Source: Acidobacteriota bacterium
Lineage (GTDB): Bacteria; Acidobacteriota; CAIWXX01
DNA: 64,000 nucleotides
Assembly (NCBI GenBank): GCA_040755995.1
Contig: JBFMAF010000049.1
Location: forward strand, 64,001 to 128,000
Direction of reading: 5' to 3'
Position numbers and translations under genes: made by a program. The notes under the pieces were generated by a model that did no database searches, was not told the origin of the DNA, and worked only from the letters and a program-made list of their open reading frames with translations. Numbering within the stretch: position 1 is the stretch's first letter; every line of letters begins with the position of its first letter. Below are positions 6,323-14,390 of the stretch, in pieces.

Positions 6323-7510
6323 TCAATAGTCGACTATTTCATAGTAGTATGGCGACTCGCCTATGTTGCCCCAGGCGTTCATGGTCGAGACATAGTCTTC
6401 CTTCAAGGCATTCATGACGGTGTTGTACTGGCTATCGCTCATCTCACCAGAGCTGCGGTAGGCGAGTGCCGCGGGTGGCGCCACGCCCGAGTAGTTCTGC
6501 GCCGGAGGGGCCTGCGCCGTGCGGGCGAACATCTGCTGCACCATCTGCTGCCGTTGTGCCAGCGCTGCCGTTTCCCAAGCGTGCCGGAAGTAGTTCCATA
6601 GAATCGACATGCTGCAGCAGAACTGCTTCTCCTGAAGGCTCATTTTCGGAAACCGAGCGGCGATCGACTCGATCGCCGATCGAGCCGATGCTTCGGTCCA
6701 TTGAATCAGCTGGCCGGAGCTTGCCTGCTGGATGAACGAGAGATAGGCGAGCAGCGCCTCGGCGTCCTCGCGCGTGAAGACCAGGTTGTTTGTATCATCC
6801 GACGCCAGCACATGCACGTGGTCGAAGAGCACGCGGAGGAAGATCGGTCTTTGCGTCGCGGGCATCGCTCGATCTGCCTTGTAGAACTCCACAACGAGCG
6901 CTTGCCGCAGAAGGCCGACCTGAAGTGGGTCGGTCACCTGGCGCAGAACCTGGATCGACTGGCCCAGCTTCTGCATCTCGCCGAGGAACCCGGCTGGGTT
7001 TTGCTGGAAATCCGAGACCGCCTGCTGAGTGAGGGCGTTCCTTTCCTGCTCGTTGAGCTGGGCATTGATGATGAATTGGAGTAGATGAATGCCAGTCTCC
7101 ACCGCCGTGGTGGTGAGAGTGAGGCCGCCCGCCGTGCAAAGCACGCCGCCTCCTGCCTGCTGCCGCTCCGGCAGCCGCAATCGCTGCCAGTAGATCATGG
7201 CTCCGTTGGCATCGGTGAAGATCATCTGATCTCCGCCCAGATTGACGAGGTAGGATGTGAGCATCCCCGAGGCGGCATCCTGGAAAGTGATGAGGCTTCC
7301 CTGCACTGCGTATCGGCCGCTCCACTGCCCGAAGAGGTATGTGCCGTCGGGGTTCAAGGTCATCTCGATCGAGAGCTGTGCCGCGCGCCAACTCCCAGTC
7401 AACGATTCCGCGCGCGCGGTCACCCCAGTCAGCAAAGCGCACACGAGCGCGCCCGCGACAACCGTCTGAAGGCGCGCCCTGCAACGGCCTCTATTGATCT
7501 CGCCGCTCAT
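6323..7510 (-). CDS. Exported hypothetical protein
   Basis: GGAGGAG RBS, signal peptide ending ARA-E, beta-rich N-domain then helical domain. Confidence 0.7.
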   Translation of the reverse strand: MSGEINRGRCRARLQTVVAGALVCALLTGVTARAESLTGSWRAAQLSIEMTLNPDGTYLFGQWSGRYAVQGSLITFQDAASGMLTSYLVNLGGDQMIFTDANGAMIYWQRLRLPERQQAGGGVLCTAGGLTLTTTAVETGIHLLQFIINAQLNEQERNALTQQAVSDFQQNPAGFLGEMQKLGQSIQVLRQVTDPLQVGLLRQALVVEFYKADRAMPATQRPIFLRVLFDHVHVLASDDTNNLVFTREDAEALLAYLSFIQQASSGQLIQWTEASARSAIESIAARFPKMSLQEKQFCCSMSILWNYFRHAWETAALAQRQQMVQQMFARTAQAPPAQNYSGVAPPAALAYRSSGEMSDSQYNTVMNALKEDYVSTMNAWGNIGESPYYYEIVDY

Positions 7511-7750
7511 CTGTCTCCTCCTCCAACAACTGTGCGTCGTAGCGTTCCGCATCGAGCCGCCCACGCCTCATGTCGAACCCCGTCAGTCGGGGAGATGGAC
7601 GGCGTTGAATCCACTTCGACTCCATCCTAGCCGTTCCCTCGCAACAGATCAACGGGATCTGCGCGCAGGGGAGCAGGGGTAGGGGTGCATTGCGACGCCC
7701 GCGCATTCGTGGTATTCCTTAGTCTGGACCCTCATTAGGGGAGGCGATCC

Positions 7751-7977
7751 GTGAGAGCTAAGTTGGTTCATACCGAAGTTAGCGAAGAAGGTGTCATTCA
7801 CATTGTGGATCCTGTGGTCCCTCCTGGTGAAGTGGATGTCTGGTGCTATTCGGGGAGATCGAATCCGCAATCGGGAGCGTGGAGCAACCTGCGGGCCCGC
7901 TCCCACTGGGCGGGTACCGGGTAGGTTGCCTGACACCGCACCAGCTGAGACGTGAAGCCATGTACGACGAAGGCTGA
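7751..7977 (+). pseudogene. Frameshifted putative antitoxin gene
   Basis: GGAGG + GTG; MRAKLVHTEVSEEG...GEVDV then a frame change near 7841 to VLFGE...LRREAMYDEG-stop; TGA overlaps the next ATG. Confidence 0.5.
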
Positions 7978-8051
7978 TGCCACAGAGGGTATTTCTCGAC
8001 ACAAACATCCTCGTCTATTCCAGGGAGTGGCAAAGTCTCTTGACCTCCTGA
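7977..8051 (+). pseudogene. Truncated PIN/VapC toxin N-terminus
   Basis: MPQRVFLDTNILVYS then a stop after 24 codons. Confidence 0.65.
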
Positions 8052-8194
8052 GACGTCCGGGAGCTCCGCCTCGCGCTGGCGTCGAGCCCGCGCAGCCACT
8101 ATTGTGGGCCTCATTTGCGAGAGGCCTGAGTCGCGCTACCTGCATGCGCAGGGATTGAGACTGCGTAGCCGCATTTACACCTGTTTACCCGTCG

Positions 8195-8222
8195 TTGACA
8201 ATCGCGGAGAGACTGGTAGACT
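8195..8222 (+). promoter_or_regulatory. Putative sigma70 promoter of the AmmeMemoRadiSam operon
   Basis: TTGACA-N16-TAGACT with TG extension. Confidence 0.5.
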
Positions 8223-8249
8223 CGGTAGTGATCCTTAGGATCACTCCCC

Positions 8250-9488
8250 ATGGCTACACGACGGGATTTCCTGAAATCATCCATCAGCCTCGTGCCAGTC
8301 CTGGGAGGCGCTGGGTATCTGCTGTCGCGGTACGGGCTTGTGCCGCTCCTCGGCAGCCCCGATCGCGCCGCGCATGCGGCGACAAGTCTTCAGGAGCTCA
8401 TCAAGGCCGCGCCGAAGGCTCGCTACTGGACGACGCCTGCGCTCGCGGGCCGCAATTGCGCCGCCTGCCACTCCGCCTCCGACGACGTCCAGGGCCGCAA
8501 GCACACGCATGCGCCCACACTCATCAAGTGCCTGCTCTGCGCACAGGGGTGCGCGCTCACCGACGGCGAGCGCGGCAAGTGCCGCGCGCGAATCAACGCC
8601 GGCGGCGAGATGCGCACGCTTGTCTACGGGCGCCCGATCACCGTTCACATCGATCCGATCGAGAAGAAGCCGCTGTATCATTTCCTGCCGGGCTCGGCCG
8701 CCTTCTCTCTGGCCACCTCCGGCTGCCCGCTCCGCTGCAAGTTCTGCCAGAACTGGGAGATCTCCCAGTGCATGCCCGAGGACTACGAGAGCCCGTACGT
8801 CGCGCCGGCTCAGGTCGCCACGGCCGCGTCCTCGAACAAGGCCCCGGTGATCGCTTTCACGTACAACGAACCCACGGTTTTCACCGAATACCTGACTGAC
8901 ATCGCGAGGGAGGCGAAGAAGCAGAAGGTCAGGTGCGTGCTCATCAGCTGCGGCTTCATGACCGAAGCGCCGCTTACCGAGATGTGCTCCGTCCTGGACG
9001 CGATCAAGATCGACCTGAAGGGGTTCAGCGAGAGCTTCTATCGGGAGGTGTCGAGCGCCGAGCTGAAGCCGGTGCTGAGAAGCATCAAGCAGGTGCACGC
9101 GAGCGGCGTGCACCTCGAGATCGTCAACCTCGTGGTACCGACCCTGAACGATTCGGAGAAGGCGCTGCGGGACCTTGCGGCGTGGGTCGTCGGCGAGCTC
9201 GGCCCGGACGTTCCCGTCCACTTCACTCGTTTCCATCCCGACTACCAACTCCTGAACCTGCCTCCGACTCCGGTCGCGACGCTGGAACACGCGCGATCGA
9301 TCGCCCTGGAGAAGGGCATGCACTATCCTTACGTCGGCAATGTCCCGGACCACGCGGGGAACAACACTTACTGCCCCGGGTGCAAGGAACTGATCATCGA
9401 GAGAAACGGCTTCTTCATCAGTCAGATGAACATGAAAGACGGGGCCTGCGCCTTCTGCCGTCACAAGATTGCGGGTGTGTGGCTCTGA
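8250..9488 (+). CDS. amrS: AmmeMemoRadiSam system radical SAM enzyme with Tat signal
   Basis: DPIEKKPLYHF, GCPLRCKFCQNWEISQ, TYNEP, HFTRFHP, NTYCPGC; N-terminal TRRDFLK. Confidence 0.92.
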   Translation: MATRRDFLKSSISLVPVLGGAGYLLSRYGLVPLLGSPDRAAHAATSLQELIKAAPKARYWTTPALAGRNCAACHSASDDVQGRKHTHAPTLIKCLLCAQGCALTDGERGKCRARINAGGEMRTLVYGRPITVHIDPIEKKPLYHFLPGSAAFSLATSGCPLRCKFCQNWEISQCMPEDYESPYVAPAQVATAASSNKAPVIAFTYNEPTVFTEYLTDIAREAKKQKVRCVLISCGFMTEAPLTEMCSVLDAIKIDLKGFSESFYREVSSAELKPVLRSIKQVHASGVHLEIVNLVVPTLNDSEKALRDLAAWVVGELGPDVPVHFTRFHPDYQLLNLPPTPVATLEHARSIALEKGMHYPYVGNVPDHAGNNTYCPGCKELIIERNGFFISQMNMKDGACAFCRHKIAGVWL

Positions 9489-9518
9489 GGGTTCCGACAC
9501 GATCATGGATGAGGTTCG

Positions 9519-11057
9519 ATGAGGAGATCAAACTGGATTCCTATCATGTGGCTAGTTGCGAGTTCCTTCGGAAGCTGCAGCGCGCAGTCCACCGGCAAAG
9601 GTCCGCAGGCTGAGGTGCGCGAGCCCGCGGTAGCGGGGCAGTTCTACCCTGGGTCTGCGGCCGCGCTGAAGCTGGCGATGCAGTCGTACGTCTCTGACGC
9701 GGTCGCCCCGCGCACAGGGCGCCCGATCGCGCTGGTCTCGCCGCACGCCGGCTACATCTACTCCGGGCAGATCGCGGCCGACGCTTTCAAGCAGTGCGAG
9801 GGACAGCGGTACAGTACAGTCGTCATTCTGGGGACGAACCACACGACCCCCGACATGCGTAAGGTGGCGGTCTACCCTGGCGCCGGCTTTCGCACGCCGC
9901 TCGGCGTCGCTACGGTCGACAGCTCGCTTGTGGATGCACTGTTGAAGGAGAGCCCCGACTGCGCGCTGGAGGCCGGGCCTCACGCGCGCGAGCACTCGGT
10001 GGAGGTGCAGATCCCGTTCATCCAGGCCGTGCTCCCGGATGCCAAGATCGTCCCGCTGGTCGTGGGCACGCAGGACCTTGGGATCCTTACGCGCTTCGGC
10101 AAGGTCCTGGGCAAGGTGTTGAGCGGACGCGAGGCGCTCGTCGTCGCGAGCTCGGATCTCTCTCACTACCCGGCCTACGACGATGCGGTTCGGGCCGACA
10201 AGCGGACGCTGGAGGCTGTGGCCGCGATGGATCCGGAAGGCTTCGTGTCCGCGACCGACGCCCTGATGCGCAGCAACATCGCGGGCCTCGGCACGTGCGC
10301 GTGCGGGAGCGCGCCGATCATCGTGGCGATGTCGGCGGCGAAGGCGCTCGGAGCCACGCGCGGCATCGTCGTGAGCTACGCGAACTCCGGCGACGTCGCG
10401 ATCGGGGATTCCTCCAGGGTCGTCGGATACGGCGCAGTCGTCTTCACCACGGGTGCCGGCGGGGCCGACACCAGCGTCTTGAACCGCCCGCCCTCCACCT
10501 CGTCGAACGCGCAGTTCAGCCACGAGGACAAGCTGGCGATGCTCGCATTCGCGCGCAAGAGCATCCAGCGGTTTGTCGAGAGCGACACCGTGCCTCTCGC
10601 CCGCAACGTCGACGCGAGGCTTCTGCAGCCGCGCGGTTGCTTCGTGACACTGAAGAAGCACGGCGAGCTTCGCGGGTGCATCGGCCACATGACCGCCGAC
10701 ACGCCGCTCTACAAGCTCGTCGGCACCATGGCGCTCCACGCGGCGTTCAACGACTCGCGTTTCGAGCAGCTGCGGGCGGCGGAGCTCGCCGAGATCGAAA
10801 TCGAGATCTCCGTGCTCACGCTGCCGAAGCCGGTTGCGAGCGCGCGGGACATCGTAGTCGGGCGAGACGGTGTGATCCTGACCAAGGGGAGCCGCACGGC
10901 GGTCTTCCTGCCGCAGGTTGCGACCGAGCAAGGGTGGGACCGCGACGAGATGCTCGATCACCTGTGCGTGAAGGCGGGGTTGTCCCCCGGCGAATGGAAG
11001 CAGGGCGCCGCATTCCAGACGTTCCAGGCCGAGGTCTTCGGCGAGAGCGATCATTAG
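9519..11057 (+). CDS. amrB: AmmeMemoRadiSam protein B (Memo) / protein A (AMMECR1) fusion with signal peptide
   Basis: REPAVAGQFYP, PHAGYIYSG, EHSVEVQ, SSDLSHY; then CFVTL, LRGCIG, EISVLT, FLPQVA. Confidence 0.92.
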   Translation: MRRSNWIPIMWLVASSFGSCSAQSTGKGPQAEVREPAVAGQFYPGSAAALKLAMQSYVSDAVAPRTGRPIALVSPHAGYIYSGQIAADAFKQCEGQRYSTVVILGTNHTTPDMRKVAVYPGAGFRTPLGVATVDSSLVDALLKESPDCALEAGPHAREHSVEVQIPFIQAVLPDAKIVPLVVGTQDLGILTRFGKVLGKVLSGREALVVASSDLSHYPAYDDAVRADKRTLEAVAAMDPEGFVSATDALMRSNIAGLGTCACGSAPIIVAMSAAKALGATRGIVVSYANSGDVAIGDSSRVVGYGAVVFTTGAGGADTSVLNRPPSTSSNAQFSHEDKLAMLAFARKSIQRFVESDTVPLARNVDARLLQPRGCFVTLKKHGELRGCIGHMTADTPLYKLVGTMALHAAFNDSRFEQLRAAELAEIEIEISVLTLPKPVASARDIVVGRDGVILTKGSRTAVFLPQVATEQGWDRDEMLDHLCVKAGLSPGEWKQGAAFQTFQAEVFGESDH

Positions 11058-11131
11058 TGAGGCGTGGCCTCGGACCTGTTAGCTGGGCAAAGATCATCGA
11101 TTTCACCCGACGAGCTCTTGGAGTCAGACGT

Positions 11132-11329
11132 ATGAAGGATCTTATCGTTGAGGAAGTCCGCAAGTACCGGATGGAACACACCCGGAAGTTCGACGGCTGT
11201 TTGAAGGCTATCTGCGAAGACCTGCGGGCCGTTCAGAAGACGTACGGCGTCAAGGTGGTTCGCCTTCCCGCGAGAAGGATGGAGCCTGCCCCGCAGACCG
11301 GCCGGCGGCGGACAAACCCCGCCGCCTGA
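11132..11329 (+). CDS. Small hypothetical protein of the type usually found after PIN-domain genes
   Basis: MKDLIVEEVRKYRMEHTRKFDG...ICEDLR; preceded by an overlapping PIN-tail-like ISPDELLE remnant. Confidence 0.55.
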   Translation: MKDLIVEEVRKYRMEHTRKFDGCLKAICEDLRAVQKTYGVKVVRLPARRMEPAPQTGRRRTNPAA

Positions 11330-11426
11330 TCGTCGGCAGCTCTCAGGCGGCTTTAGGAGAGGGCGCGGCGCGCCGGCTGCATCGACAACATGCACTCACA
11401 CCGTAGGCGCTGAGGCGGGCGGCGAC

Positions 11427-13580
11427 ATGCTGCTGCTGATCGCCATCGGGCTGCTCGCGATCTTGACGCAGGTGGTGCTCATGCGCGAGCTGAGCGCTGC
11501 GTTCTACGGCATCGAGCTGATCTACCTGCTCGCCCTCGGCGCTTGGCTGCTCTGGAACGCCGGTGGGGCTCTCGTCAGCCGCCGAACGCGGGCCCCTTCA
11601 CTCCGGAAAATCGGCGGGCTTCTCGTGCTGCTGGCGATCACCATCCCGCTGGATGTTGCCTTCATCCGCGCAGCGCGACATCTCTTCGGCGGTGTCGCGG
11701 GTGCGTATCTGCCGTTTCCAAGCCAGATCATCGCCATGTGCCTGGCCATGCTGCCCGTGAGCCTGCTCCTGGGACTCCTCTTCCAGTGGGCCGCAAAGCT
11801 CCAGACCGCCCGCGGGCGGACCCTCGCCGTGGCGTACGCGGTGGAGAGCGCCGGAGGAGTCCTCGGCGGGCTGCTGTCAACGATGTTCCTCCTCTGGGGT
11901 GTGCAGAACTTCCTGATCGGGATGCTCTGTGCGACGCTGTCGCTGTGCTACGGCGCGAGCTACCTGGCAGGAGGGAACGCCACGAGGCAGTGGTTTGCCG
12001 CGACAGCGGCGGGGCTGCTCACGCTGCCGCTCCTCTGGAGAGTGAGCGACCTCGATCGCGCCATGACGCGCTGGAACCATCCTGATCTTCTGGATAGCCG
12101 GGACTCCCCGTACGGGCGCATCACAGTGGACAGCACCTTCGGCCAGATGACCGTCTTCGACAATGACGCGCTCTCGTTCGAGAGCGAGGGGACCGACGCG
12201 GAGGTGTTTGCGCACCTCGTCGCGTTGCAGCATCCTGATCCAAAGCGAATATTGACGCTCGGAGGCGGAGTAGAGGGCGTTGTGCACGAGCTATTGAAAC
12301 ACCGTCCGGAGCGAATCGACTACGTCGAGCTCAACGCGGTCACAATCGACCTCGTTCTGCCCAACCTCCCTGAGACGCTACGCAAGTCGGTCGTTGCGCC
12401 TTGCGTGCGCACCATTCTCGGGGATCCTCGAACCTTTCTCCGCGATTCGGAATCCTACGACGTGATCGTTTCGGCAATGGCCCAGCCGACCTCCGGTCAG
12501 GCCAACCGGTTCTACACTGTCGAGTTTTTCCGGCAAGCCGCGGCCCGCCTGCGCCCAGTCGGTGTGCTGGGCTTGCGGCTGCGATCGGCGGAGAATTTCT
12601 GGACGCCGCAGCTGGCGCGGCAGCAGGCGAGCATCGTGCGGGCGATCAGGGCCGCGTTCGCCGATGTCGTCGTGCTGCCGGGGACCTCGAACGTGGTGGT
12701 GGCGTCACAGACCAAGTTGCCTCGGGATCCGCGAGTGCTCGCCGACCGCCTGTCGGCGCGCGGAATCATGGCGCGCCTGATCAGTCCAGCCTATGTCGGC
12801 TATCTCTACCAGAATGATCGGTTCATGGAGATCGCCCGAGTCGTGGACGCCCAGACGGTCCCAGCCAACACCGACAGCCGCCCGATCTGCTACCAGTACA
12901 CGCTCATGATCTGGCTCTCGAAGTTCTTCCCGAGATTGAGTCGCGTGGATCTGTTCGAGATCGTCGATCGCGACAGGTGGGCGTTGCGCCTGCGGTGGCT
13001 TCTTCCGTGCGCGCTGGCGTTGGTTTTCCTACTGAGCCGCCTGCGGCCGGCGATCCGGCGTGCGCTGCTCGTCGCCGCAGCCGGCTTCGCCGGGATGGTG
13101 CTCGAGAGCGTCTTGCTCCTCCACTACCAGCTCAAGAGCGGGGTCGTCTATCAGAACATCGGCGTGCTGCTCATGAGCTTCATGGCCGGGCTCGCGCTGG
13201 GTGCGCTCCTCATGGATCGTTTGGCGAGACGTGGACGGCGGCAGATTCGAAGGTCCCACGGACTCGTGCTGGTGCTCGCATCCGTCGCGACCGCCTCGGC
13301 CGTATGGTGGGGCGTTGGGCGAGGGGTGGGTGGAGGCCTCGCGGGGACAGTCGCGGTCCTCATGGTGACCGGCCTCCTGGTCGCAGCCGTATTCGGATAC
13401 GCGAGCCTCTACCAGGTCGAAGATCAGACCGGAAGCGTCTCGCCGCTCTACGCTGCCGACCTGATCGGCGGTGCGCTGGGATCGGCCGTCGGGAGCCTGA
13501 TGCTCATTCCACTTCTCGGCCTCCCGCTCACCGCCGCGTGTATGGCAGTACTATCGGCCCTGGCGATGCTGTCCCTGTGA
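11427..13580 (+). CDS. Polytopic membrane protein with central spermidine synthase-like SAM-dependent transferase domain
   Basis: Two TM blocks with YAVESAGG / YAADLIGG motifs, DSPYGRI, ILTLGGG, VELN, GDPR, RFYTVEFF. Confidence 0.85.
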   Translation: MLLLIAIGLLAILTQVVLMRELSAAFYGIELIYLLALGAWLLWNAGGALVSRRTRAPSLRKIGGLLVLLAITIPLDVAFIRAARHLFGGVAGAYLPFPSQIIAMCLAMLPVSLLLGLLFQWAAKLQTARGRTLAVAYAVESAGGVLGGLLSTMFLLWGVQNFLIGMLCATLSLCYGASYLAGGNATRQWFAATAAGLLTLPLLWRVSDLDRAMTRWNHPDLLDSRDSPYGRITVDSTFGQMTVFDNDALSFESEGTDAEVFAHLVALQHPDPKRILTLGGGVEGVVHELLKHRPERIDYVELNAVTIDLVLPNLPETLRKSVVAPCVRTILGDPRTFLRDSESYDVIVSAMAQPTSGQANRFYTVEFFRQAAARLRPVGVLGLRLRSAENFWTPQLARQQASIVRAIRAAFADVVVLPGTSNVVVASQTKLPRDPRVLADRLSARGIMARLISPAYVGYLYQNDRFMEIARVVDAQTVPANTDSRPICYQYTLMIWLSKFFPRLSRVDLFEIVDRDRWALRLRWLLPCALALVFLLSRLRPAIRRALLVAAAGFAGMVLESVLLLHYQLKSGVVYQNIGVLLMSFMAGLALGALLMDRLARRGRRQIRRSHGLVLVLASVATASAVWWGVGRGVGGGLAGTVAVLMVTGLLVAAVFGYASLYQVEDQTGSVSPLYAADLIGGALGSAVGSLMLIPLLGLPLTAACMAVLSALAMLSL

Positions 13581-13585
13581 TCTCC

Positions 13586-13614
13586 GACAACTGACAACTG
13601 CCAACTGTCAACTG
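13586..13614. repeat. Degenerate 7-bp tandem repeat (CAACTGN)
   Basis: gacaactgacaactgccaactgtcaactg between convergent genes. Confidence 0.7.
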
Positions 13615-14390
13615 TTCTTACGCACTTTCGGCTGGTTCCTCTCGTAGACGATACGCAGTCCATCGAGCGTCAGGTCCGGGTCGACCTTCTCGATGAGGGG
13701 TGTTTCGGGGGAGAGGACGGTGGCGAGGCCGCCGGTGGCTACCACGGTCCGCGTCTCGTGGTCCTTCTTCATGCGTTCCAGGATGCCCTCGACCAGTCCG
13801 ATGTATCCGTAGAAAAGCCCGCTCTGCATGCTGGTCACGGTGGACTTGCCGATGATGCTGTCCGGCTTGCGGATCTCGACGCGCGGCAGCCTTGCTGCGC
13901 GCTGGAACAGGGCCTCCGCCGAAATCATGATTCCGGGGGCGATAGCCCCTCCGAGGTACTCACCGCGCACGGAGATCGCGTCGAATGTGGTGGCCGTCCC
14001 GAAGTCGACCACGATCGATGGGCCTCCGTATTTCTCGAACGCCGCTACGGCGTTGACGATCCGGTCGGCACCCACTTCCTGAGGGTTGTCGTAGAGGATC
14101 GGCATGCCCGTCTTGATGCCGGGCTCGACCATGAACGCATCGATCTCGAAGTACCGGCGCGCGACGCGTTCGAGGATCGGCGTGAGCGGAGGCACAACGC
14201 AGGAGACCGCGAAGCCGGCCAGCTTGCGCCGATCGATCTCGCTCAGGCTCAGCAGGTTTCTGATCGCGAGTCCATACTCGTCGACCGTGCGCTCGCGCTG
14301 AGTCGATATCCGCCAGTGCGCCATGAGGCGCTTCCCCGCGAAGACGCCCACCACCGTGTGCGTGTTGCCCACATCCAGTGCAAGTAGCAT
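13608..14390 (-). CDS. coaX: Type III pantothenate kinase
   Basis: LALDVGNTHT, VGADR, VDFGTATT, GGAIAPG, VATGG. Confidence 0.95.
   Translation of the reverse strand: MLLALDVGNTHTVVGVFAGKRLMAHWRISTQRERTVDEYGLAIRNLLSLSEIDRRKLAGFAVSCVVPPLTPILERVARRYFEIDAFMVEPGIKTGMPILYDNPQEVGADRIVNAVAAFEKYGGPSIVVDFGTATTFDAISVRGEYLGGAIAPGIMISAEALFQRAARLPRVEIRKPDSIIGKSTVTSMQSGLFYGYIGLVEGILERMKKDHETRTVVATGGLATVLSPETPLIEKVDPDLTLDGLRIVYERNQPKVRKNS

Follow-up and report, generated by a model that had tools for sequence, protein, structure and literature searches.

A candidate extracytoplasmic AmmeMemoRadiSam system with an MFS-type membrane partner in an Acidobacteriota bacterium

We know of no reaction for Memo, AMMECR1 or the radical SAM enzyme AmrS, though Memo and AMMECR1 are conserved from bacteria to humans. 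Radical SAM enzymes are assumed to work in the cytoplasm, since SAM and reductant are available there. Burroughs et al. 2019 (JBC) is said to be the chief account of Memo-AMMECR1 gene contexts, and MFS/spermidine synthase fusions were reportedly treated by Li et al. 2019 (Biochem J). For AmmeMemoRadiSam, RNA base modification has been proposed (PMC2034487).

The window, a 64,000-nucleotide stretch of DNA from an Acidobacteriota bacterium, carries three co-directional ORFs on the + strand at 8250-9488, 9519-11057 and 11427-13580, as the first-pass annotation had placed them, and an ORF check gave no upstream in-frame start for any of the three. With a probability of roughly 0.55, we read this locus as an extracytoplasmic version of AmmeMemoRadiSam, an envelope workstation for radical SAM chemistry in which a transporter would serve as SAM supplier.

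8195..8222, + strand: sigma-70-type promoter-like site, TTGACA-16 nt-TAGACT, 10/12 consensus matches (consensus match only)
8250..9488, + strand: amrS, AmmeMemoRadiSam radical SAM enzyme of the Tat + CxxCH subclade, 412 aa (TIGR04337)
8250..8378, + strand: predicted Tat-type signal peptide spanning residues 1-43, with a putative cleavage site at the end of AHA (RR motif conservation)
8457..8510, + strand: inserted CxxCH (C70, C73, H74) with distal His87, putative haem c site (conservation)
8724..8747, + strand: radical SAM CxxxCxxC motif (C159, C163, C166), invariant in 120/120
9519..11057, + strand: amrBA, Sec-signal Memo (~33-310) - AMMECR1 (~341-510) fusion, 512 aa (TIGR04336/TIGR04335)
11132..11329, + strand: 65-codon ORF within the 369 nt that separate amrBA from the third gene, no match in Pfam/NCBIfam
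11427..13580, + strand: MFS-fold transporter of 14 TM helices whose outer side carries an inserted spermidine-synthase-fold domain (~205-515), 717 aa (AF2/fold match)
12039..12971, + strand: predicted outward-facing SAM-fold domain, candidate docking partner of AmrS (complex prediction)

Two sigma-70-type sites were found in 7600-14000, against 0.5 expected. A 19-nt palindrome at 8227-8245 was rejected as a conserved element, as 0/60 upstream regions carry it. The 65-codon ORF is lineage-specific and probably outside the system; in most relatives the third gene follows amrBA directly. The first-pass annotation was silent on this ORF and on the CxxCH insert (AmrS residues 70-74).

The three proteins and their export signals

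AmrS scored 373.9 bits against TIGR04337 (cut-off 220), which places it in AmmeMemoRadiSam. Its AF2 model has a pLDDT of 86, and the nearest solved fold to its core is the PFL-activating enzyme 3cb8 (E 2.2e-15). Two further Cys clusters, C94/97/101/111 and C375/378/400/403, are invariant among 120 homologues, as is the radical SAM motif. Selenocysteine was considered for three AmrS paralogues with an in-frame TGA and was rejected, the TGAs being normal stop codons.

Export signals were judged from motif, hydropathy and conservation. The AmrS N-terminus had been described as a twin-arginine motif (TRRDFLK) followed by a hydrophobic segment and an AHA site, a description that was borne out: an RR-x-F/L-type motif is found in 116 of the 120 best homologues, and the four others are shorter and apparently truncated at the N-terminus. 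Across the family the 13-residue hydropathy value averages 1.60 (lowest 0.65), and an A/V-x-A site, suggestive of cleavage, lies just ahead of the mature domain in 73 of the 116 RR-bearing homologues. TatC is present in 79/80 genomes tested, this one included. By motif, hydrophobic region, conservation and TatC, AmrS thus has the sequence characteristics of a Tat substrate. Among the 120 long AmrS matches, 14 carry a hydrophobic helix but no RR ahead of the enzyme domain and 2 further ones a Sec-type signal far upstream, which fits poorly with the idea of obligatory cluster pre-loading for Tat export.

The second protein matches TIGR04336 in its Memo domain (259.7 bits, cut-off 26) and TIGR04335 in its AMMECR1 domain (182.6 bits, cut-off 99). 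Invariant in 52 rows are the Memo residues H76, H108, E158, H159, D213, H216 and C262 and the AMMECR1 residues R385-G386-C387 and D412-x-R414-F415; RGCxG and DxRF have been described as AMMECR1 motifs (PMC2034487). The proposed signal peptide stood up, the N-terminus being hydrophobic in 74/74 close relatives (best 11-residue mean ~1.8 or more), with the window's own signal the family's weakest at 1.76; by the same measure, five Memo proteins beside signal-less AmrS range over 0.23-1.77. The lipobox proposed along with it did not hold as a conserved feature: a lipobox-like Cys occurs in only 18/74 relatives, so a conserved lipoprotein anchor was rejected and the FGSC of the window copy is probably optional or incidental.

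The third protein was modelled with a pLDDT of 88 (AF2) as 7+7 helices. VIA-align matched it to the MFS protein VMAT2 (9kqa; Z 28.9, rmsd 3.1, 320 aligned), and most of its top 50 rows were MFS, in agreement with a 12-helix MFS fold; the inserted domain matched SpeE (1uir; Z 25.8, rmsd 3.1, 280 aligned). Foldseek listed spermidine synthases only, and Pfam MFS_1 gave no match in the window protein and a weak one (E 0.002) in a paralogue. In 52 rows, even loops average 1.9-4.2 K+R and odd loops 0.0-1.3; from this positive-inside alternation and the MFS topology, the inserted SAM-fold domain is computed to face outward. Conserved charged residues in the membrane helices are R20, E21, E30, R81, R84, E140, E560 and D678.

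This protein carries PF01564, yet it falls below the cut-off of every aminopropyltransferase model (PRK03612, 74.5 of 472 bits; NF037959, 16.4 of 40 bits). Its SAM-fold domain retains GGGxEG, E301 (46/52 rows) and D333-P-R335 (D333 in 50/52), that is, a spermidine synthase fold with the adenosyl-binding motifs GxGxG, acidic ribose residue and D-x-R. The catalytic Asp of DxxD, the acidic residue of GGG[D/E]G, the Y-H pair and a Q are presumably the residues of SpeE that serve aminopropyl transfer and the amine pocket. In the alignment with T. thermophilus SpeE, G/A stands at 350, V/I at 282, and Y-H is replaced. Spermidine synthase activity was rejected on these replacements and on the family cut-offs. 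The label "membrane SAM-dependent transferase" given in the first-pass annotation is supported as regards a polytopic membrane protein with a spermidine-synthase-like domain, but not as regards transferase activity: the protein has a full MFS fold and has lost the aminopropyl-transfer residues. As far as sequence can tell, delivery or docking of SAM is a better match than transfer of an aminopropyl group, while methyl or aminocarboxypropyl transfer keeps some probability.

Co-occurrence, fusions and descent

Close relatives from many phyla supplied 80 genome loci, in which amrBA comes next after amrS in 72 of the 74 loci with room for it, and the MFS gene follows in 58/63. A second, phylum-wide sample of 140 loci consisted of 139 of the 150 matches listed plus one paralogue from the window's own genome; 23 further matches lay outside that list. 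The window itself, G023, one partial match and 8 high-scoring canonical matches were left out, and 7 of these 8 canonical AmrS have no signal. Signal classes were assigned automatically, with 4/140 loci (L206, L254, L164 and L216) reassigned by eye before counting. AmrS without a signal had a nearby MFS gene in 0/87 loci and a fused Memo-AMMECR1 in 0/87. The MFS gene was nearby in 15/41 loci with Tat-type AmrS lacking CxxCH and in 7/12 with CxxCH. For fused Memo-AMMECR1 the corresponding counts are 25/41 and 10/12.

Co-occurrence with the membrane protein had been set as a check, and it was supported by genome (G023 again omitted): members of the MFS subfamily (E 1e-50 or better) occur in 48/50 genomes with Tat-type AmrS versus 4/100 others, counts that are not independent, since in the tree every export-tagged AmrS falls to the same side of a single branch (SH-aLRT 89, not starred), so that the co-occurrence may reflect one origin. 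One of the four exceptions has a frameshifted Tat-type AmrS adjoining, and two have only truncated AmrS pieces. The AmrS with CxxCH form one clade (support 99). Furthermore, 3/120 long matches are fusions of MFS-SpdS, NapH-like helices and AmrS in which an internal RRxFL immediately precedes the AmrS domain, the layout shown for dual Sec/Tat proteins in PMC5449189.

Docking, SAM supply and electron entry

Complex prediction for AmrS and the SAM-fold domain gave a score of 0.89 in three runs versus 0.68 for the best of 3 controls (an unrelated control), a margin of 0.21 that narrowly passes the required 0.20, by 0.01; this mark is reached by 116/157 solved and 2/215 mismatched pairs, a calibration only rough for the alignments and ligands used. 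The runs share at least 91% of contacts, with a partner pLDDT of at least 86. The predicted interface lies on the open, active-site face of AmrS, where N390 of the partner is set against Y205 and N168, beside the cluster motif. The AmrS interface residues N336, P338, P341 and V342 are conserved across the two exported groups and vary among AmrS without a signal; on the MFS side, conservation of the interface is only partial across 18 distant partners (N390 in 9, Q240 in 8, R465 in 14). On these predictions we consider it rather likely that the SAM-fold domain docks on the active-site face of AmrS.

The same interface has been weighed for two other readings. In one, along the lines of the first-pass annotation, the location is also outside, and the SAM-fold domain is an active methyl- or aminocarboxypropyltransferase, fed by the MFS part, that channels a modified envelope substrate to AmrS. 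The N-terminal beta-domain takes part in the docking surface, as does the 388-394 loop, which aligns beside what we take to be the acceptor-pocket region of SpeE; the SAM-binding motifs are intact, 5/18 distant MFS partners have Asp at the catalytic-Asp position, and methyltransferases derived from the spermidine synthase fold exist, e.g., putrescine N-methyltransferase. However, this subclade retains none of the Q, Y-H, acidic-GGG and DxxD residues of SpeE, and neither an acceptor nor a decarboxylase gene accompanies the cassette within 8 kb in the 80 loci, which leaves this reading unlikely. Very improbable, in our judgement, is that the SAM-fold domain is the protein substrate of AmrS, which would act on loop 388-394 and thereby activate or mature the transporter in the manner of the PFL-activating enzyme: that enzyme is the nearest solved fold and N390 is predicted beside the cluster motif, but no glycine is conserved in the loop, only half of the 18 distant partners (9/18) retain N390, and canonical AmrS does without an MFS partner (0/87).

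A further reading leaves AmrS on the cytoplasmic face, or makes it a mere chaperone for exported cargo, with the signals as membrane anchors or vestiges and the CxxCH binding zinc or iron. SAM and low-potential reductant are cytoplasmic, RR-less anchored AmrS fusions occur, and a cleavage-type motif is present in only 73/116. Against this, the positive-inside rule and the MFS topology set the partner domain outside, the internal RR is retained in the MFS-SpdS-AmrS fusions and Memo-AMMECR1 has Sec-type signals in 74/74; we regard the cytoplasmic reading as having a slim chance, and it appears probable that AmrS, Memo-AMMECR1 and the SAM-fold domain are located outside the cytoplasm. Of the envelope modification pathway proposed in the first-pass annotation, the location is thus upheld by signals, topology, co-occurrence, fusions and predicted docking, and the transferase role of the membrane protein is not.

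For the extracytoplasmic reading, electron entry has a candidate in the CxxCH insert. C70, C73 and H74 are found in 120/120 AmrS homologues and H87 in 113/120, a His or Met lies between CxxCH and the next CxxC in 120/120, and the insert is missing from other AmrS groups. AmrS thus combines the sequence marks of a c-type cytochrome (CxxCH with distal ligand, export signal, maturation genes in the genome); the assembly genes, present in 58/58 genomes with CxxCH (one duplicate) and 37/37 without, do not discriminate. Searched in the Atlas, residues 44-120 matched no cytochrome family (best 0.86). A Tat signal is hard to reconcile with haem c attachment, which normally takes place on unfolded chains exported by Sec. 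A DUF362 neighbour occurs in 30/41 Tat loci without CxxCH versus 0/12 with it. As the CxxCH group forms a single clade, this exclusion counts as one event. No DUF362 cluster was present among the 80 CxxCH loci of close relatives. We slightly favour a c-type haem site as the likely point of electron entry, with a metal site as the alternative.

Taken together, AmrS would gain its [4Fe-4S] cluster in the cytoplasm and be exported folded via Tat, and Memo-AMMECR1 would leave via Sec. The 14-TM protein would be an MFS transporter whose two extra helices put the SAM-fold domain outside, where it may dock on the open, active-site face of AmrS. The MFS part could then export SAM and pass it to AmrS by way of the SAM-binding domain, perhaps taking methionine or 5'-deoxyadenosine back; for SAM supply to AmrS we see an even chance, and we know of no SAM exporter of this kind. 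CxxCH...His87 may bind a bis-His c-type haem that passes electrons to the cluster, a role that a DUF362 protein or a fused NapH/FMN-type membrane conduit might fill in sister lineages. More speculatively, the substrate from which AmrS takes hydrogen would lie in the envelope, with a membrane lipid, an isoprenoid or an envelope peptide as the likeliest kinds, and the Memo metal site and the AMMECR1 cysteine could then process it. ORF clustering within 8 kb in the 80 loci gave no real fourth conserved gene (substrate or electron donor) in more than 6 loci and no substrate gene travelling with the cassette. The complete picture, a self-contained periplasmic machine with a SAM-exporting MFS, a docked Tat-exported haem c AmrS and Memo-AMMECR1 finishing a lipid or peptide modification, is tentative and somewhat doubtful.

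Relation to described systems

We found no description of an exported AmmeMemoRadiSam or of an extracytoplasmic radical SAM enzyme among the papers listed, though Burroughs et al. 2019 may already mention the neighbourhood. If the reading is right, a widespread clade with the whole set outside and candidate solutions for SAM and electrons would widen the range of this chemistry; its SAM exporter and its radical SAM enzyme outside the cytoplasm would each be, as far as known, the first of their kind, and a haem c protein exported via Tat would be rare.

SpeE and its membrane forms (PRK03612, NF037959) also join the soluble fold to MFS-type helices; here, in contrast, the domain lies between two 7-helix halves, its catalytic residues are replaced, and the gene travels with AmrS rather than with SAM decarboxylase. 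The PFL-activating enzyme, a glycyl-radical activase, is the best structural match to the AmrS core, but AmrS reaches 57.7 bits against a cut-off of 231.75 and has extra N- and C-terminal Cys domains, and no glycyl-radical enzyme was found among its conserved neighbours (80 loci, 8 kb). With the dual Sec/Tat NapH-NapG polyferredoxin fusion, as presented in PMC5449189, the relatives' fusions share NapH-like helices, an internal RR, a helix and an Fe-S domain; here it is a radical SAM enzyme that is exported (the word "radical" does not occur in PMC5449189) and the window's genes are unfused. AmrS resembles c-type cytochromes in its invariant CxxCH with downstream His/Met, its export signal and the presence of maturation genes, and differs from them by a Tat rather than a Sec signal and by a motif in a short loop insert instead of a cytochrome fold.

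With described AmmeMemoRadiSam systems the locus shares three domains above cut-off and invariant radical SAM, Memo metal-site and AMMECR1 RGCxG and DxRF motifs; it differs in export signals on both proteins, the B-A fusion, an obligate MFS partner and the CxxCH insert. An outside location would argue against an RNA substrate for this variant, and for the broader question of what Memo, AMMECR1 and AmrS do it would point toward envelope substrates and away from RNA.

Operon and export signals

An ORF check and profile matches confirmed the three genes that the first-pass annotation had claimed, each where it had been placed.

Features of the operon.
8195-8222, + strand: promoter-like site upstream of amrS
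8250-9488, + strand: AmrS, the radical SAM enzyme (TIGR04337, 374 bits)
9519-11057, + strand: Memo-AMMECR1 fusion, amrBA (profile matches)
11427-13580, + strand: membrane protein of 717 residues that includes a spermidine-synthase-like domain (profile matches)

Downstream of the promoter-like site and ahead of amrS, an inverted repeat of two perfectly matching 9-bp arms, one nucleotide apart (8227-8245), covers the likely ribosome-binding site; its conservation was sought in 60 relatives and none was found. A 24-codon remnant upstream of the operon (7977-8051) has a start whose motif resembles that of a putative PIN-domain protein. The surroundings further hold a divergent 413-aa ORF with a signal-like start (6323-7564, minus strand; no Pfam or NCBIfam match) and a 65-codon ORF without family match between amrBA and the membrane gene (11132-11329).

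The twin-arginine (Tat) signal reported on AmrS is borne out by an RR-x-F/L-type motif in 116 of the 120 best homologues, the remaining four looking truncated. R4 and R5 are never substituted in this set, and the stretch from there to the mature domain varies freely. Memo-AMMECR1 had been assigned a signal with a possible lipobox. The signal stood, as the N-terminus is strongly hydrophobic in 74/74 close relatives, of which the window's own copy has the weakest stretch. A lipobox-like cysteine, by contrast, occurs in only 18/74, so that lipid anchoring does not appear to be a family trait. Thus, judged from the sequences, export is a family trait of the AmrS/Memo-AMMECR1 set, and an extracytoplasmic location of the system is well supported.

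Distribution of the gene set

The close relatives, examined at 80 genome loci, carry labels that include Syntrophales, Acidobacteriota, Ignavibacteria, KSB1, Latescibacterota and Calditrichota. At 75 of these loci amrBA is present, and at 65 the membrane gene, or 72/74 and 58/63 where enough contig lies downstream. No fourth conserved gene was found around these loci. A phylum-wide set of 150 genomes provided a less biased sample of 140 AmrS loci, four of which were relabelled by eye before neighbours within about 5 kb were counted. The membrane gene, fused Memo-AMMECR1 and DUF362 were all absent beside the 87 no-signal AmrS; the respective counts were 15, 25 and 30 for the 41 Tat-type loci without the CxxCH motif described below, and 7, 10 and 0 for the 12 Tat-type loci with it. 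The proposed co-occurrence of Tat-type AmrS with the membrane protein held at genome level: its subfamily occurs in 48/50 genomes with Tat-type AmrS versus 4 of the other 100. One of these four exceptions has a frameshifted Tat-type AmrS adjoining, and two have truncated AmrS pieces. A tree built on the core of the enzyme, with 68 rows, puts every one of the 40 export-tagged AmrS on one side of a single branch (support 89, not starred) and unites the rows with CxxCH in one clade (support 99), so the co-occurrence counts are not independent.

The window's own genome (7.7 Mb, 56 contigs) carries both TatC and cytochrome c assembly genes. Five AmrS genes scored above cut-off in a profile search, three with twin-arginine N-termini (in the window and on contigs C40 and C35) and two without. 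The C40 copy (L254, 121206-126239) belongs to a second exported set with a Tat-DUF362, a Tat-AmrS lacking CxxCH and a convergent gene of the membrane-protein type; no Memo-AMMECR1 lies nearby, and the set may share the window's exported fusion. On C35 (L255, 244519-246635), a third, divergent Tat-type AmrS follows a secreted helical protein with a stretch that we take to be LT-x-x-Q-like, and has no MFS or Memo neighbours. Two distant Memo-like ORFs (C35:18813 and C34:48578) apparently also have hydrophobic signal starts.

Elsewhere, at L142, L143, L146, L147, L149, L153 and L154, the DUF362 genes adjoining Tat-AmrS have no signal of their own, which makes piggy-back export with AmrS possible; other DUF362 carry a Tat signal. 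At L161, L167, L177, L179, L180 and L185, a lactate-racemase-family (LarA) gene of the same clan as DUF362 lies directly 3' of Tat-AmrS. In its accessible part, PMC11770544 does no more than assign DUF362 to the lactate racemase clan.

The membrane protein and its predicted complex with AmrS

The predicted model (pLDDT 88) comprises seven helices, a soluble domain and seven more helices, and matches the MFS transporters VMAT2 (Z 28.9, rmsd 3.1, 320 aligned) and SotB (Z 25.0). K+R counts per loop alternate across 52 rows (even 1.9-4.2, odd 0.0-1.3), which, together with the MFS orientation, puts the soluble domain of the model outside. The earlier label of a polytopic spermidine synthase-like protein is right as to the fold (spermidine synthase SpeE, Z 25.8) and the adenosyl-binding motifs, which are kept. 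The aminopropyl-transfer residues, however, are absent: going by residue roles that we presume for SpeE, G/A stands at the catalytic Asp position, the acidic position within GGG[D/E]G is taken by V/I, and the Y-H pair is gone. The protein is therefore not a spermidine synthase.

Mature AmrS was predicted together with the outer domain (residues 205-515) from paired alignments in three runs. The complex scored 0.89 in all three versus 0.68 for the best control, a narrow pass of a mark that is reached by 116/157 solved and 2/215 mismatched pairs, figures that apply only approximately to the present setup. The runs share at least 91% of contacts, with partner pLDDT of at least 86. On the AmrS side the predicted interface surrounds the cluster motif (130-136, 167-171, Y205, 329-344), and on the partner's side it takes in the family-specific Q240, N390 and N463-R465. 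Exported AmrS keep N336, P338, P341 and V342, positions that vary in no-signal AmrS; N336 occurs in 40/41 and 22/24 of two exported groups versus 8/87 no-signal. To our knowledge, as far as fold searches tell, no complex of this kind has been solved.

Electron supply, alternative readings and known systems

Directly after the signal, AmrS carries an inserted loop with C70-x-x-C73-H74 in 120/120 homologues, which the first-pass annotation had missed; other AmrS groups lack it. His87 is present in 113/120, and a His or Met lies between CxxCH and the next cysteine pair in 120/120. A c-type haem site shows this combination of CxxCH and a distal ligand, and haem c may be the electron source in this subclade, whereas sister lineages would use DUF362 or NapH/FMN modules instead. 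Haem c is normally attached to unfolded, Sec-exported chains, a real difficulty for a haem on Tat-type AmrS. We count as another that cytochrome c maturation genes are present in CxxCH carriers and non-carriers alike.

In three of 120 long AmrS hits, a single chain runs from MFS-SpdS through NapH-like helices bearing CxxxCP motifs to AmrS, with an internal RRxFL and helix immediately before the enzyme. According to the accessible part of PMC5449189, internal motifs of this type send the final domain through the Tat route. In twelve others a membrane module of FMN-binding/NapH-like type precedes AmrS, and two more have a short hydrophobic leader, one being a triple AmrS-Memo-AMMECR1 fusion; 0/14 of these carry an RR motif. 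By their architecture, the fusions support an outside location of AmrS and a link to electron supply. The RR-less forms do not fit with a cluster that has to be in place prior to export. Among individual homologues, P0244-P0259 have hydrophobic leaders or membrane modules and no twin-arginine motif, two of them with a long secreted N-terminal region, and P0241-P0243 (801-884 aa) contain PF14528 and PF14890, presumably intein and homing-endonuclease families.

Our preferred reading, to which we give a probability of about 0.55, is an exported AmrS set in which the MFS transporter would export SAM and hand it to docked AmrS, haem c would deliver electrons, and an envelope lipid, isoprenoid or peptide would be processed with Memo and AMMECR1. 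Part identity, conserved signals and co-occurrence are read from sequence; fold, outward topology and docking are computed. An outer domain active as methyl or aminocarboxypropyl transferase seems unlikely with the SpeE residues replaced, but Asp at the catalytic position in 5/18 distant partners leaves room for activity in the wider family. More doubtful still is a reading in which the signals serve as anchors and the reaction takes place in the cytoplasm: the RR-less forms would suit it, but the internal RRxFL of the fusions points outside. That the docked outer domain is itself the protein substrate of AmrS would be quite surprising.

The location of the system is well supported. As far as their accessible parts go, PMC2034487 proposes RNA base modification for AmmeMemoRadiSam and does not contain 'signal peptide', PMC7159879 refers the reader to Burroughs et al. 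2019, and the 2026 Tat review PMC13673990 does not contain 'radical SAM'. The literature matches listed, a scope outside which Burroughs et al. 2019 falls, include no description of this exported form, which is real, conserved and, in the literature searched, apparently undescribed. By all tested features the window set belongs to the AmmeMemoRadiSam system, of which it is a distinct exported variant.
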